Made by a program: the position numbers. Shown here piece by piece: positions 21,001 through 27,000 of a stretch of 64,000 nt of DNA (the stretch's first letter is position 1; every line of letters starts with the position of its first letter). The DNA lies in assembly GCA_963783305.1 (NCBI GenBank), contig CAWAMW010000002.1:832001-896000 (forward strand). Reading direction: 5' to 3'. This DNA is from an uncultured Gemmatimonadales bacterium (lineage in GTDB: Bacteria; Gemmatimonadota; Gemmatimonadetes; Longimicrobiales; RSA9).

Positions 21001-24000
21001 TGAGGCAGGACGCCCGGCTTTCCTGGCGAATCCTGGCGTCGAACCCCGGTTTCAGCGCTGCGGCGATCGTTACGCTGGGGCTCGGGATCGGCGCGAACAC
21101 GGCGATCTTCAGCGTGGTGGACGCCGTGCTGCTGAGCGAGTCCCCGTTCGCGGATCCCGACCAGCTGATCATGGTGTGGGAGACGGACCGGGGCAGCGAC
21201 AACGCCCACGAGCCGGCGAGCTGGCCCGACGTGGCGGATTTTCGGGAGCGCTCGCGTACGCTGTCGGCCATCGGCGCTGTGGTGGGGCAGGACTACACGC
21301 TGTCGTCGGGAGCGGGCGACCCCGAGCGCGTGGCTGGTGTGGCGGTGACGCCGAACGTCCCGGTGCTACTGGGCGTTCGCCCGATCGTGGGGCGAATCTT
21401 CACGCCCGGGGAGGGCCGTGCAAACGATGCTGCCGTAGTTCTGCTGGGCGAGGAGTTCTGGCGGGAGCGCTATGGCGGCGATCCCGGGGTAGTGGGCGCG
21501 ACGCTCGTGATCGAGGAGGAGCCGGCCACGGTGGTGGGTGTACTGCCGGCGGGGGCGGACCTGGGAATTCGGCAGATCCATGATCGTGCGGATTACGCGC
21601 CGTCGTTCAGCGGCGCGGACATCCAGGTGTGGGCGGCGTTTCAGCCTGCAGCGGAGGATTTCCCGAGGCAGACGCACCCGTTCCTGACGCTGGGTCGGCT
21701 GGCGCCGGGCGCTTCGCTGGCGGCCGCGCAGAGGGAGCTGTCCGGTATCGCGGCGGAGCTGGAGTCGATGTATTCGGAGAACGCGGGTCGTGGAGCGAAC
21801 CTCGAGCCGTACACCGAAGTGGTGTTCGGGGGCGTGCGGCGGGCGCTGTGGGTGCTGCTGGGCGCTGTTGGCCTGGTGCTCCTGATCACGTGCGCGAACG
21901 TGGCCAACCTGCTTCTGGCGCGCACCGCGAGTCGCAGGCGGGAGGTAGCCGTCCGCCAGGCGCTGGGCGCGCCGGCGTCGCGGATCCGGAGCCAGTTCCT
22001 GGTGGAGGCGCTGGTGCTGACCGGGCTGGGCGCCGCGGCTGGGGTGGCGGTGGCGTTTGCGGGACTCGCGCTGCTGCTGGCGCTCGCACCGGCGGACATC
22101 CCGCGGCTCGGCCAGGCCACGGTGGACGGCCGCGTGCTTCTCTACACAATGGCGGTGTCCACCCTGGTGGCGGTGGCGTTCGGGGTCCTGCCCGCCCTGC
22201 AGACGGGCCGGCTGGAGGTGCAGGAGGCGCTGAGAGCGCAGGCAGGGCGGCGGAGCTCCGAGGGGCGCGCCTCCCGCCGGTTCCGCGGGGCGCTGGTGGT
22301 GGCGGAAGTGGCCCTGACGGTGATGCTCGTCATCGGCGCCGGGCTGATGCTGCGCAGCGTCTGGGAGATGCGGCGGGTGGAGCCCGGGTTCGATGCAGCC
22401 CGCGTGGTCAAAGCGCAGTACCAGCTTCCCGACACCCGTTATCCGAGGGATTTCTCGCGGTGGCCCGACATCCCGGAAATCAATGATTTCCACGCCCGGT
22501 TCCTGGAAGCGGTGCGGAGCGTACCCGGAGTGGAGGCCGCGGCCATCGCCGGCGGCCACCCGCTCGATCCGGGGTTCACGAACTCGTTCACGATCCTCGG
22601 GCGGGAGTCGGAGTCGGCGGACTACCCCGAGATCCGGACACGTTTCCTTTCCCCGGGCTACCTGGAGACGCTGGGTGTCGATCTCGTGGCCGGCCGGGAC
22701 ATCAGGGCGAGCGACGACGTCCACTCGCCACCGGTGGTAGTGATCAACCGCGCCGCGGCCGCCCGCTACTTCCCAAAGGGCGACCCTCTCGGTCAGTCGA
22801 TCCGGTTCTGGGGCACCGACCGGCAGATCGTGGGGGTGATCGGCGACGAGCGGTTCCAGGGCGTGGACCGACCCGCGGAGCCAGCGGCGTACGCGCCACT
22901 TCTCCAGAACCCGCAGCAGAGCGCGACGCTCCTGGTCCGTAGCGAGGGTGATCCGCTGGCGGTGGTGCCGGAGATCCGGCGGAGCTTCCGTAAGCTCGAT
23001 CCTCAGCTGGCGCTGTTCGACGTGGAGCCACTGGCCACCACGCTCTCCGAGAGCATGTCGCGGCCCCGCTTCCTCGCCACCCTTCTGACTCTCTTCGCCG
23101 GACTCTCCATCCTGCTTGCGCTGGTCGGCGTCCACGGTGTGCTCAGCTACACCGTGGCCCGTCGCGCGCCCGAGGTGGGGATCCGGATGGCGATGGGCGC
23201 GACTCGCGCCCGTGTCATGGGCGCGGTGATGGGGGAGGGGCTCGCGCTGGCCGCCCTCGGAGTCGTGGTGGGCATGATGGCGGCGCTCGCCGGGTCCCAC
23301 CTCCTCGGCAGCCTCGTGTTCGGCGTCACCACCACCGACCCGGCTACGTTCGTGGCCGTTCCGGCGCTGGTGCTGGCGACGGCGGCCGCGGCCAGCGCGC
23401 GGCCAGCCTGGCGGGCCGCGCGGGGTGACCCCCTCAGTGCGCTTCGGGCGGACTGAGCGGCGACCCGGCGCTATTGCTGGTCGTCATCCGGCTCGGCGGC
23501 GGCGATCAGCTCCATCTGTTCCTCGTGCTGCCCCGATTCCCCGGCAGAGGGCTCTCCTTCCGCCTGCTTTTCCGACCCGCGCTCGGATGCCACCCGGCTG
23601 ACCTCCACCACGCGGTCTCCCACGGCCATGCTGATGAGCTGCTTGCCCTGTGTGGCCCTGCCCTGGATGGGGATCTTCGCGGCGGCCAGCCGGGCGCCCT
23701 TGCCGGCGGCGGTGGTGACCATGAGCTCGTCGCCCTCGAGTACTTCCTTCGCGCTCACCAGCGGCCCCGTCCGCTCGCTGACGCTGAGCGCGGCCGTCCC
23801 CTGCCCGCCGCGTCCCTGGACGCGGAAGTCGGCGATGGGGGTGCGCTTGGCGAACCCGTTGGCGGTGACGCAGGCGAGGGTGGCCTCGCGGCGAACGACG
23901 ACCATCCCGACCACCGCGTCATCGTCCTTGAGCCGAACGCCGATGACGCCCTGGGCGGTGCGGCCGACCTGCGGCACGTCCGTTTCCGGGAACCGTATGG

Positions 24001-27000
24001 CGCGGCCCTGTGCGGTGACCAGGACGACGTCGTTGACGCCATCGCTCATGCGGACGTCGAGGAGCTCGTCCTCGTCCTTGAGGTTGATGGCGATGATGCC
24101 ACCCGCCCGGATGTTGGCAAACTCGCTCAGCTGTGTGCGCTTCACGATCCCGCCGCGGGTGAGGAAGACCAGGTCCACGTCCTCCTCGTACTCGGTGATG
24201 GGCAGCAGAGCGGCCACGGCGATGCCGGCGTCGAAGCCCAGCAGCTGGTTCAGCGCGCGGCCGCGGCTGGCTCGGCTGCTCTCCGGGATGTCGAGGACGC
24301 CGATCTCGTACGAGTGGCCATCGCCGGTGATGATGAGCAGCACGTCGTGCGTGCTGGCGATGAACACGTGCTCGAGGAAGTCCTCCTCGTACTTCTCCAT
24401 CCCCGCCAGTGCCTTCCCGCTGGTGACGCGTCGACGGTAGAGCGATACGGGCATCCGCTTGATGTAGCCCTGGTGGCTGACGGTGATGACCACATCCTCC
24501 TGGGCGATCATGTCCTCCATCTTGAACTCGGCGTCGCCCGTGACGATGGTCGTGCGGCGGCCGTCACCGTACTTCTCCACCATCTCGTCCAGCTCGGAGA
24601 GGAAGAGCGCCTCCTGGCGCTCGGGCGAGTCGAGGAGGTCGAACAGGTCCTTGATCTGCGCCTTCAGCTCTTTCAGCCGGGCCTTCAGCTCCTTCGTCTC
24701 GAGCTCGGTGAGGCGGTGGAGCCGCATGTTCAGGATAGCGTCGGCCTGAATGCTGGACAGGTCGAAGGCGGCCTGGAGCTTGTCGCTCGCCTCCTCCTTG
24801 CCTCTCGACTCGCGGATGATCCGGATCACCTCGTCGATGTTGTCGAGGGCGGTGATCAGCCCTTCGGTGACGTGCGCCTCGGCCTTGGCCTGCTCCAGGT
24901 CGTGGGCGGCGCGCCGCTGGATGACCTCGACCCGGTGGTCGCGGTACTTCTCCAGCATCTGCCGCAGCGTCATCTCGCGGGGCACGCCGTGGTCCAGCGC
25001 GATCATGATGGCGCCGAATGTGGCCTGCATGTACGTCTTCTTGTAGAGCTTGTTGAGCACCGGCTGGACCTTGGCGCCGCGCTTCAGCTCGATGACGATC
25101 CGCATCCCGTCCCGGTCGCTCTCGTCCCGGAGGTCGCTGATGTCGTCGACCGTCTTTTTCCGCACCAGGTCGGCGACCTGCTCGATCACCTTCGACTTGT
25201 TCACCCCGTACGGCAGCTCCGTGACGACGAGCTGCTCCTTCCCGCCCCGTTTCGCCTCCCGCTGCACCCGCGCCCGCATGGTCATCCGGCCCCGGCCGGT
25301 CTCGTACGCCTCCCGGATCCCGTCGGTGCCGATGATGAACCCGCCTGTGGGGAAGTCGGGGCCGGGGATGACGGCCAGGAGATCGTCGACGGTGCAATCG
25401 GGCGTGTCCGTAATGAGGTGGAGTCCCGCGGCGATCTCGCGCAGGTTGTGGGGCGGGATGTTGGTGGCCATCCCCACGGCGATCCCGGACGATCCGTTGA
25501 TGAGCAGGTTCGGCAGCTTCGACGGCAGGACCCGCGGCTCCTGCCGCTGGTTGTCGAAGGTGTCAGTGAAGTCGACGGTCTCCTTGTCGAGGTCCGCCAG
25601 CAGGTCGGTGGCGATGGCCTCCAGCCGCGCCTCCGTGTACCGGTAGGCGGCGGCGTTGTCCCCATCGATGCTGCCGAAGTTCCCCTGCCCGTCCACCAGC
25701 GGGTAGCGCAGGCTGAACGGCTGGACCATCCGGACCATGGCGTCGTAGACCGCGGAGTCGCCGTGCGGGTGGTATTTACCCAGCACCTCACCCACCACGT
25801 TCGCGCTCTTCTTGTACGGCCGCGTCGGTCCGAGACCGATGTCGCTCATGGCGTACAGGATCCGGCGGTGCACCGGCTTCAGGCCGTCCCGCACATCGGG
25901 CAGCGCCCGCTGCACGATCACGCTCATGGAATAGTCCAGGAAGGAGTCCCGCATCTCCTCTTCGATCAGACGCGGGAGCACGCGTTCGCGGCGTTGGGGC
26001 ATCACCATGCTGCTTCAGGCCTCCGGCAAAACGGATGGGTCAGGGTGTCCTGCCCCCAATGTGAGGGAGCGGTGCATCCGCGTCTACCCGGCCGGGGCCG
26101 GCGCGGGATCCAGCAGGACGCGGGGTGCCCGGGGTCAGTCCGCGGGCATCGCAGCGCGCACTGCGAGCAGCAGTTGCTGCGTGGTGAACGGCTTCTCGAG
26201 GAACATTGCACCGCGCCCCGCCACCCCGTGACGGATCACCTCATCATCGGTGTACCCGCTGGTGAAGAGTGTGGGGATGTGGATGTCGCTCTGGTGGAGC
26301 GCCTCGGCGAGCTCGGGGCCGCTCATCTCGGGCATCACCACGTCCGTGAGCAGCAGGTCGATGGACTCGCGGCGGGCGTGGGCGATTTCGAGCGCGGCGG
26401 TCGGCGTGGCGGCTTCGAGCACGGAATAGTCGTTCTTCTCGAGCACGCGGCGGGCGAGCCGACGAACGGCCGCCTCGTCCTCGACCAGGAGGATTACGCG
26501 TCCGTCCGGCTCCTTCCCCACCGGAGCGGCTGGTTCGGCGTCGGCGATGACCGCCGTGTCCTCGGTCAGCGGTTCGTCCACGGCCGGGAAGAAGATATCG
26601 AAACGGCTGCCCTCCCCCACCGTGCTGTCCGCCCGAACGTGGCCGTCGGACTGCCTCACGATCCCGTACAGCGTGGCGAGCCCGAGCCCCGTCCCCTTGC
26701 CCTGCTCCTTTGTGGTGTAGAAGGGCTCGAAGATGTGGCCGATCACGTCGCTGCCCATCCCGTGCCCGGTGTCGTGGACTGTGAGCCGGACGTAGTCGCC
26801 CGCCGCCATGGCGTCTCCGTAGGGGTCCTCGCCGGTCGTGTGGACCGGGTGGTCGGCGAGCTCGAGGGAGAGCGTGCCGCCCTGTGGCATGGCGTCGCGC
26901 GCGTTCACGACGAGGTTCATGAGGACCTGCTCGAACTGCGCGGGATCCACCCTGACCGGAGCGGTGGCGCTCTGGAGCTCGACGCGGAGATCGATCTGCT

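Follow-up and report, generated by a model that had tools for sequence, protein, structure and literature searches.

A second GyrA without the blade-1 GyrA-box and with a sliding-clamp-type tail motif, probably sharing the single GyrB of a Gemmatimonadota genome

The window analyzed here is a 64,000-nt stretch of contig CAWAMW010000002.1 (positions 832,001-896,000; assembly GCA_963783305.1, 95.96% complete, 17 contigs), and all coordinates count along it. It contains one of the two GyrA-type genes of the host genome, together with the sliding clamp gene:

23471..26008, minus strand: gyrA2, encoding the second GyrA-type subunit (GyrA2), 845 aa, with a six-bladed CTD
25683..25981, minus strand: identical block shared with gyrA1, a gene conversion tract of 299 bases (about codons 10-109 of gyrA2)
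25631..25645, minus strand: YRYTE motif (residues 122-126) with catalytic Arg123-Tyr124
24410..24430, minus strand: RVTSGKA (residues 527-533), replacing the blade-1 GyrA-box
23798..23818, minus strand: QGRGGQG (residues 731-737), box-like, kept in blade 5
23504..23518, minus strand: QMELI (residues 831-835), a motif of clamp-binding type within the disordered C-terminal tail
57703..58809, minus strand: dnaN (sliding clamp), the proposed, inferred partner of the tail motif
59096..60478: dnaA, adjoining dnaN

The gyrA2 gene is an intact open reading frame in which a domain search finds PF00521 and PF03989, with GGAGG 11 bases upstream of the ATG. Its product has the hallmarks of a type IIA A subunit, namely the PF00521 core, the catalytic Arg-Tyr pair and a β-pinwheel CTD. 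A monomer model shows six blades and a disordered tail; a fold search with this model, which is poor at residues 1-130 and 529-545 and thus of low confidence at the box loop, returned only gyrase and Topo IV structures. The survey's finding had described two gyrA genes about 58% identical beside one gyrB, in agreement with our values: GyrA1 and GyrA2 share 57.9% identity over 821 aa, and tblastn with GyrB (E≤10) located no B subunit in the host genome beyond the one GyrB.

Family assignment places GyrA2 among the GyrA proteins. It scores above the gyrA equivalog cut-off (TIGR01063, 1077 against 877) and below both parC cut-offs (706 against 813 and 571 against 629), and in our trees it branches within GyrA, with three ParC outgroups falling outside. 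The Gemmatimonadota second copies form a clade of their own (SH-aLRT 99 and 97 in two trees), as previously claimed, and the cyanobacterial second copies form a separate one (93 and 90), which speaks against shared ancestry of GyrA2 with the Sll1941-type second copy. GyrA2 lacks the blade-1 Q(R/K)RGG(R/K)G of a gyrase, as ParC does, and has no ParE partner of its own in the genome. As judged from sequence, GyrA2 derives from a gyrA duplication inside Gemmatimonadota and not from ParC.

At the GyrA-box site, GyrA2 reads RVTSGKA and copy 1 reads QRRGGRG. With first and second copies labeled by BLAST score and tree, independently of the box, the blade-1 box was present in 68/68 first or single copies, absent from all 43 second copies extending into the CTD, and missing from 120/120 further homologues. 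The GyrA-box loss reported earlier is therefore confirmed for blade 1 but does not extend to blade 5, where 30 of 41 second copies keep a box-like QxRGGxG. Box loss abolishes supercoiling while sparing decatenation, and in M. tuberculosis the blade-5 box helps decatenation (PMC8216471).

The earlier account, sound in its gene counts and box loss, had overlooked the C-terminal tail and gene conversion between the two gyrA copies. The disordered GyrA2 tail carries a sliding-clamp-type motif (QLDLM/QLELV/ELDLF), which occurs in 29/41 second copies (shuffled-sequence mean, 0.35), in 0/87 boxed copies (0/67 and 0/20), and in 113/120 held-out homologues versus 32/2709 ORFs of the host genome, with patterns written after the tails were inspected and a held-out query that contained the tail. 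The literature gives the clamp-binding consensus as QL[S/D]LF, Q-phi-x-L-F or Q-phi-x-L-x-L. Clamp-binding proteins such as PolY1 (QLDLF), Pol I (QLELF), MutS (QLSFF) and Hda (QLSLPL) likewise place a short motif in a disordered segment, whereas position 5 in GyrA2 is mostly M, V, I or L instead of F, and the motif of family f3 starts with E. Because of these deviations, unlike the QLSFF and QLAFF of the host's own MutS and MutL, clamp binding by the tail may be weak.

The motif could also serve a target other than the clamp, or none. Its departure from the lineage's own FF-ending motifs would fit this, as would its absence from much of family f2 (8 of the 12 second copies that miss the patterns) and from five cyanobacterial second copies, which have no tail past the last blade. 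We nevertheless consider such a role somewhat unlikely, since the motif agrees with the published pentamer in Q1, L2, D/E3 and L4, the family f7 tail (QAEFEF) fits the hexamer, the site lies in a disordered terminus, and the same type of motif (QLSLL, QLSLM, QLPLI, QLTLL) appears in 6/11 of the independently evolved boxless copies of Chloroflexota. Binding of the GyrA2 tail to the clamp (DnaN) is, on this evidence, probable. An ancestral motif in single-copy GyrA was rejected (0/36 match). Partial QLEL/QMEL sequences were seen in 2/10 tails of family f5. No topoisomerase with a clamp-type motif turned up in our literature searches.

In the host genome, gyrA1 and gyrA2 have 299 identical bases in their 5' parts. 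An assembly artefact was rejected because public read contigs from run X1, which may be the source sample and is independent of the assembler only, collapse exactly at this block at about double depth, leaving the gyrA1 5' end loose; runs X21 and X22 yielded nothing but short fragments of other organisms. When pairs are matched for divergence over residues 211-510 (0.49-0.51), identity over residues 30-130 is 0.85-0.93 for same-genome paralogues versus 0.74-0.76 for GyrAs of different phyla. These patterns indicate gene conversion between the gyrA1 and gyrA2 5' parts; the high N-terminal identity could reflect general conservation plus neutral conversion. The gyrA copies of cyanobacteria and Chloroflexota share no long block (15-35 bases at most; 15-32 for the longest exact match in cyanobacteria), and we found no literature on gyrA paralogue conversion or on Gemmatimonadota gyrA.

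A GyrA2(2)GyrB(2) enzyme would be unable to wrap DNA and would for that reason relax and decatenate like Topo IV, an activity we regard as quite probable. Alternatively, GyrA2 might still act in supercoiling, as a gyrase subunit whose box is non-canonical, or be part of a mixed GyrA1-GyrA2-GyrB(2) tetramer, acting as a clamp-tethered gyrase at the fork. Within the host's order, the loop replacing the box is of unchanged length, basic and conserved (RRRVxSG), and may therefore still touch DNA; the six blades and the gyrA-type scores point the same way, a homogenized DNA-gate region would ease mixed dimers, and a gyrase with one CTD reportedly, by the title of one paper, still supercoils. However, the box Gln and first Gly are lost in all second copies, the aligned loop of families f6 and f7 is shorter by 2-7 residues and mostly lacks basic residues, and GyrA1 and GyrA2 share only about 46% identity over residues 361-510, a stretch that takes in the C-gate. 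Sliding clamps, moreover, remain in the wake of the fork, on the side that requires decatenation. We therefore judge both alternatives unlikely.

The active site argues for an enzyme. The YRYTE motif said to be kept in the second GyrA is indeed intact, HPHG and RYTE are present in 42/42 second copies, and dN/dS of the second copy is 0.10-0.24 (five genome pairs), near the copy 1 values; by these measures the catalytic machinery of GyrA2 is intact and the protein is under purifying selection. A role in regulation or DNA binding, such as the titration of GyrB, with hardly any strand passage by GyrA2 itself, would suit a gene that stands alone (neighborhood clustering, many of whose clusters are shadow frames, gave no conserved topoisomerase neighbor), but is very improbable for a core so preserved.

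The gene counts bear on the partner of GyrA2. A single GyrB match was obtained in 120/121 genomes of the order and at least two GyrA matches in 117/121, counts that rest on a first filter and profile thresholds. The broken contigs of genome G003 did not overlap. In 24/24 genomes, 23 of them single-contig, there was one GyrB C-terminal match and no Topo VI-A. The reported absence of parC and parE stands: GyrA2 lies below the parC cut-offs, and neither tblastn in the host genome nor two Pfam domains across the surveyed genomes revealed a ParE, whereas a control search with PF00204 detected two B subunits in 3/3 genomes that have canonical Topo IV. Pairing of GyrA2 with a divergent B subunit that escaped detection, conceivable given the dependence on filter and thresholds and the two GyrB matches of genome G035, is the least probable reading of all, because the host search was empty to E=10, both Pfam domains agree, the controls reveal ParE, and G035, an assembly of 560 contigs, has its second match at a contig end. 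GyrA2 very probably pairs with the cell's GyrB. The arrangement, described as fixed in the order, holds for most of its genomes but is not confined to it: contrary to the earlier claim, the second GyrA also occurs in 5 genomes that belong to two further families in the class (f6 and f7). The sister families f4 and f5 manage with a single boxed GyrA; at that scale, then, the second copy can be dispensed with.

Taken together, the gene counts, the lack of ParE and Topo VI-A beside a control that detects ParE, the intact active site, purifying selection and the known effect of box loss support a decatenase built on the shared GyrB. In the mechanism we propose, gyrA duplicated within Gemmatimonadota; copy 1, which retains its GyrA-box and acidic tail, forms an ordinary gyrase, and copy 2 retained the cleavage core and a six-bladed CTD, dropped the blade-1 box and gained the clamp-type motif. 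The sole GyrB would serve both, giving two enzymes from three genes, and the tail would probably hold the GyrA2 enzyme on sliding clamps behind the fork, where precatenanes form. This explanation as a whole, a Topo IV-like enzyme probably tethered to the clamp, we consider likely.

The arrangement is not unique, as shown by a published hypothesis for Synechocystis and by recurrence in Chloroflexota. Synechocystis has the same layout, with Sll1941, a second GyrA named ParC (PMC6560206), beside the sole GyrB, Sll2005, and the pair was suggested as a possible decatenase (PMC9825172). Two GyrA and one GyrB were found in 5/5 cyanobacteria, the second A boxless in all five, through a duplication separate from that in Gemmatimonadota, and likewise in most genomes of one Chloroflexota order; our findings indicate separate origins in at least three bacterial lineages. 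Topoisomerase IV (ParC2ParE2) similarly sets a boxless A beside a true gyrase and, in E. coli, is recruited behind the fork through the CTD-region partners SeqA, MukB and FtsK; GyrA2, in contrast, has no ParE and is nested in GyrA, and its proposed recruiter is the clamp. The Aquifex aeolicus enzyme also joins a gyrase-like core to a boxless CTD, has Topo IV activity and shows that mixing of A and B subunits is possible, yet it is that cell's only type IIA enzyme, whereas here one B is shared by two coexisting A types. The gyrase of mycobacteria, also without Topo IV and with a blade-5 box tied to decatenation, does with one A both jobs that are apparently split over two here. The shared-GyrB decatenase hypothesis is already in print, and we found no literature on a single shared GyrB across phyla; the clamp-type tail motif of GyrA2 and the gyrA1/gyrA2 gene conversion are new to the present analysis.

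More broadly, though we hold this at slightly less than even confidence, Topo IV substitutes may have arisen repeatedly by gyrA-only duplication with a shared GyrB in cyanobacteria, a Chloroflexota order and Gemmatimonadota, with a clamp-binding tail acquired at least twice, the topoisomerase carried on the clamp, and gene conversion preventing the catalytic region that faces GyrB from diverging between the two A subunits. This would make general the untested Synechocystis proposal. In these lineages gyrA carries wrong annotations, short-read assemblies break at the gene and its 5' end is mosaic, with consequences for gyrA as a marker and for interpreting alleles of the quinolone target. The findings also suggest how lineages without parE separate their chromosomes, and that the clamp itself may recruit a decatenase to the region behind the fork. 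Such natural, recent and repeated gyrase-to-Topo IV transitions hold the B subunit constant, so the determinants that distinguish gyrase from decatenase could be tested by swapping one subunit.

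The genome carries two GyrA-type genes:

window 23471-26008, minus strand: gyrA2, encoding a GyrA-type protein of 845 residues
C2:32287-34887 (contig C2 of the genome): gyrA1, the other GyrA-type gene, its product 57.9% identical to GyrA2

The single GyrB is encoded on a contig different from that of gyrA2, and a tblastn search with GyrB to E=10 revealed no second B subunit in this genome, which bears out the survey's finding of two gyrA genes and one gyrB. Its description of the second copy also holds: the catalytic YRYTE motif of GyrA2 is intact, while the blade-1 position of the GyrA-box, needed for DNA wrapping, reads RVTSGKA, compared with QRRGGRG in copy 1. 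GyrA2 scores above the gyrA cut-off and below both parC cut-offs, so databases name it GyrA; its named homologues carry the labels Longimicrobiales or Gemmatimonadota.

A type IIA A subunit requires a B subunit for its ATPase and TOPRIM functions. According to sections of PMC8216471, loss of the box abolishes wrapping and supercoiling while decatenation is retained, and A and B subunits of unlike origin can be combined. Taken together, these properties make it likely that GyrA2(2)GyrB(2) would be a Topo IV-like enzyme.

The anatomy of the copies was compared across the 112 loci retrieved. All 68 first or single copies have the box and none of the 43 second copies extending into the CTD has it, the same division that had been proposed from fewer genomes; the box also occurs in 20/20 additional single copies and in 0/120 best CTD homologues. 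In Longimicrobiales the replacement is conserved and basic (RRRVxSG), and in f6 and f7, two families outside this order but in the same class, the loop at this position is shortened. Blade 5 keeps a box-like motif in 30 of 41 second copies, and sections of PMC8216471 report that in M. tuberculosis a box in blade 5 promotes decatenation. That GyrA2, box-less at blade 1, serves in a non-canonical or mixed gyrase is unlikely. In the structure model of GyrA2 the CTD has six blades and the tail is disordered; confidence is low for residues 1-130 and 529-545. HPHG and RYTE are present in 42/42 second copies, and dN/dS over five genome pairs is 0.10-0.24 for the second copy and 0.08-0.24 for copy 1; a role for GyrA2 as a regulator is very improbable.

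Among 121 Longimicrobiales genomes, each at least 90% complete, GyrA-core matches, which do not equal copy numbers, were two in 96, three or four in 21 and one in 4, and GyrB matches were one in 120 and two in 1. A CTD recheck of three of the four single-match genomes found two CTDs in two and only one in G018. The GyrB C-terminal part was matched once in each of 24 genomes (23 single-contig), in none of which Topo VI-A was found, and the identical GyrB search detected two B subunits in 3/3 genomes with canonical Topo IV. A hidden B subunit as partner of GyrA2 is very unlikely.

Outside the order, 98 genomes of the phylum had one GyrA match in 88, none in 2, overlapping pieces in 3 and two full copies in 5 (f6 and f7), each of the five with one GyrB; the distribution tallies, those for the order among them, count in the unpublished genomes G002, G030, G075, G168 and G247. 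The two-GyrA/one-GyrB trait therefore extends beyond the order. The survey had called it fixed in Longimicrobiales, which agrees with two or more GyrA matches in 117/121 genomes; its confinement to the order does not stand. Genomes G204 (locus L095; 3 contigs, 96% complete) and G018 yielded a single GyrA-type gene each, that of G204 being of the box-less type, and these cases are probably assembly gaps. In f7 (L237-L239, from genomes G188, G169 and G183), gyrB is encoded on the strand opposite to gyrA2, ~7-9 kb away.

Trees of residues 201-510 (subsets of 76 and 66 rows) were quick searches with SH-aLRT values and without bootstrap. The Gemmatimonadota copies are all united in a single clade (SH-aLRT 99; mixture model 97). 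Within it the second copies make up a clade of their own (98; 97), whose sister group is the first copies of the class; three ParC outgroups fall outside. The branching order of families is mirrored in both copies. Since the single copies of families f4, f5 and f8 group with first copies, the tree suggests that these families may have lost the second copy.

The arrangement recurs elsewhere. Two A and one B were found in 5/5 cyanobacteria, whose second A is box-less like GyrA2 but, unlike it, has no tail. In the order of a Promineifilaceae genome (Chloroflexota; 31 genomes, loci L302-L321, L295 and L298), 27 genomes have two or more A matches above the cut-off, and B matches were one in 28, two in 2 and none in 1. 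All 11 pairs examined there consist of one boxed and one box-less copy, with QLSLL, QLSLM, QLPLI or QLTLL in 6/11 box-less tails and 0/11 boxed tails. Two of these Chloroflexota genomes, G238 and G242, have an additional adjacent B-A pair. Because the two copies of each lineage cluster together (SH-aLRT 90, 92, 97), the sequences indicate three separate gyrA duplications, in cyanobacteria, the Chloroflexota order and Gemmatimonadota.

In the present genome a gene-conversion tract of 299 bases (window 25683-25981) is identical in the two genes, and their 3' two thirds are ~60% identical. Read contigs of the public run X1 collapse at this block (depth 13.5 versus 3.8-6.9 alongside), the 5' end of gyrA1 forming a loose end there. 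In a DNA tree of codons 14-130 from 40 genomes with both 5' ends, same-genome copies paired in 9 (support at least 0.96 in 7), compared with 0 for a control segment. The longest exact block has a median of 38 bases within genomes versus 28 across genomes, and the 299 bases found here are therefore the extreme case. Being closer to gyrA1 orthologues (identity 0.90-0.91) than to gyrA2 orthologues (0.84-0.89), the block points to gyrA1 as the putative donor. Both 3' contigs were compared in five fragmented assemblies, picked for being broken; four had an identical 55- or 99-base start near codon 160-180, which is the mark of a collapsed repeat. The residues of the converted region presumably face the GyrB TOPRIM domain. 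When pairs equally divergent in the rest of the protein are compared over residues 30-130, identity is 0.85-0.93 for paralogues from one genome and 0.74-0.76 for GyrAs of different phyla; the value is 0.65 for GyrA versus ParC and 0.84 for within-phylum orthologues, the latter at lower divergence. The high likeness of the paralogues fits a shared partner, and plain conservation together with conversion fits it also.

Three other regions of the window were annotated:

29812-36405, plus strand: Eco57I-like N6 methyltransferase (1145 aa), 203-aa ORF and SNF2-type helicase frame
20417-23456, plus strand: PadR regulator and ADOP duplicated permease, convergent with gyrA2
57703-63231: origin region with dnaA-dnaN and a yidC-like gene

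The first is a probable restriction or defence cluster, in which the 203-aa ORF has no Pfam match and the helicase frame shows weak similarity to DISARM DrmD. The second separates gyrA2 from the pfkA region, its neighbour in other genomes of family f1. In the third, dnaA and dnaN lie 32-35 kb from gyrA2 and adjoin neither gyrB nor gyrA; the other classes of the phylum retain a cluster of dnaN, gyrB and gyrA. A motif search of the genome also picked out, at C6:87352-89706 and C15:236843-239206, two ORFs resembling type IA topoisomerases and one resembling SMC.

Second copies carry C-terminal QLDLM, QLELI, QLELV, QLDLL, ELDLF or QAEFEF, and GyrA2 carries QMELI; sections of bioRxiv 10.64898/2026.05.27.728225 give the clamp-binding consensus as QL[S/D]LF, Q-phi-x-L-F or Q-phi-x-L-x-L. 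Three patterns, composed after the tails were seen and applied to the last 25 residues, match 29/41 second copies and 0/67 boxed copies (shuffled sets, 0.35 times on average), as well as 0/20 further single copies. In another collection they match 113/120 homologues, retrieved with a query that contained the tail, and the background is 32/2709 crudely called ORFs of this genome. Against clamp binding, however, count the 8/11 f2 second copies outside the patterns and position 5, mostly not F, in contrast to QLSFF and QLAFF in the genome's own putative MutS and MutL, which were picked by motif. Some single-copy boxed GyrA tails (L332, L334, L104) bear the partial motifs QLELS, QMELG and QLPLG. 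Two further candidate clamp binders are a metallo-beta-lactamase-fold protein ending in QLSLF (C16:661986-662903, minus strand) and an FtsK-like protein with a mid-protein QLPLAL (C11:64052-66556, plus strand).

The two-A/one-B observation is real, and the shared-GyrB idea already has precedent as a hypothesis: sections of PMC9825172 suggest Synechocystis GyrB with Sll1941 as a possible decatenase, Sll1941 is called ParC in part of PMC6560206, and sections of PMC2647321 leave multiple origins of Topo IV-like enzymes undecided. No mention of a clamp-binding topoisomerase or of the Gemmatimonadota lineage was found in the available sections of PMC11302465, PMC13220808 and bioRxiv 10.1101/2025.08.20.671105. 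The literature covered, main texts of largely open-access papers, yielded nothing on the two-A arrangement in Gemmatimonadota or Chloroflexota, on the tail motif or on the conversion; gene contents tabulated in supplements could already include two A with one B. What appears new is the repeated origin, together with the tail of clamp type and the conversion between paralogues. Sections of PMC8216471 describe protein partners that place Topo IV behind the fork; GyrA2(2)GyrB(2), judging from its tail, would probably be tethered to the clamp.
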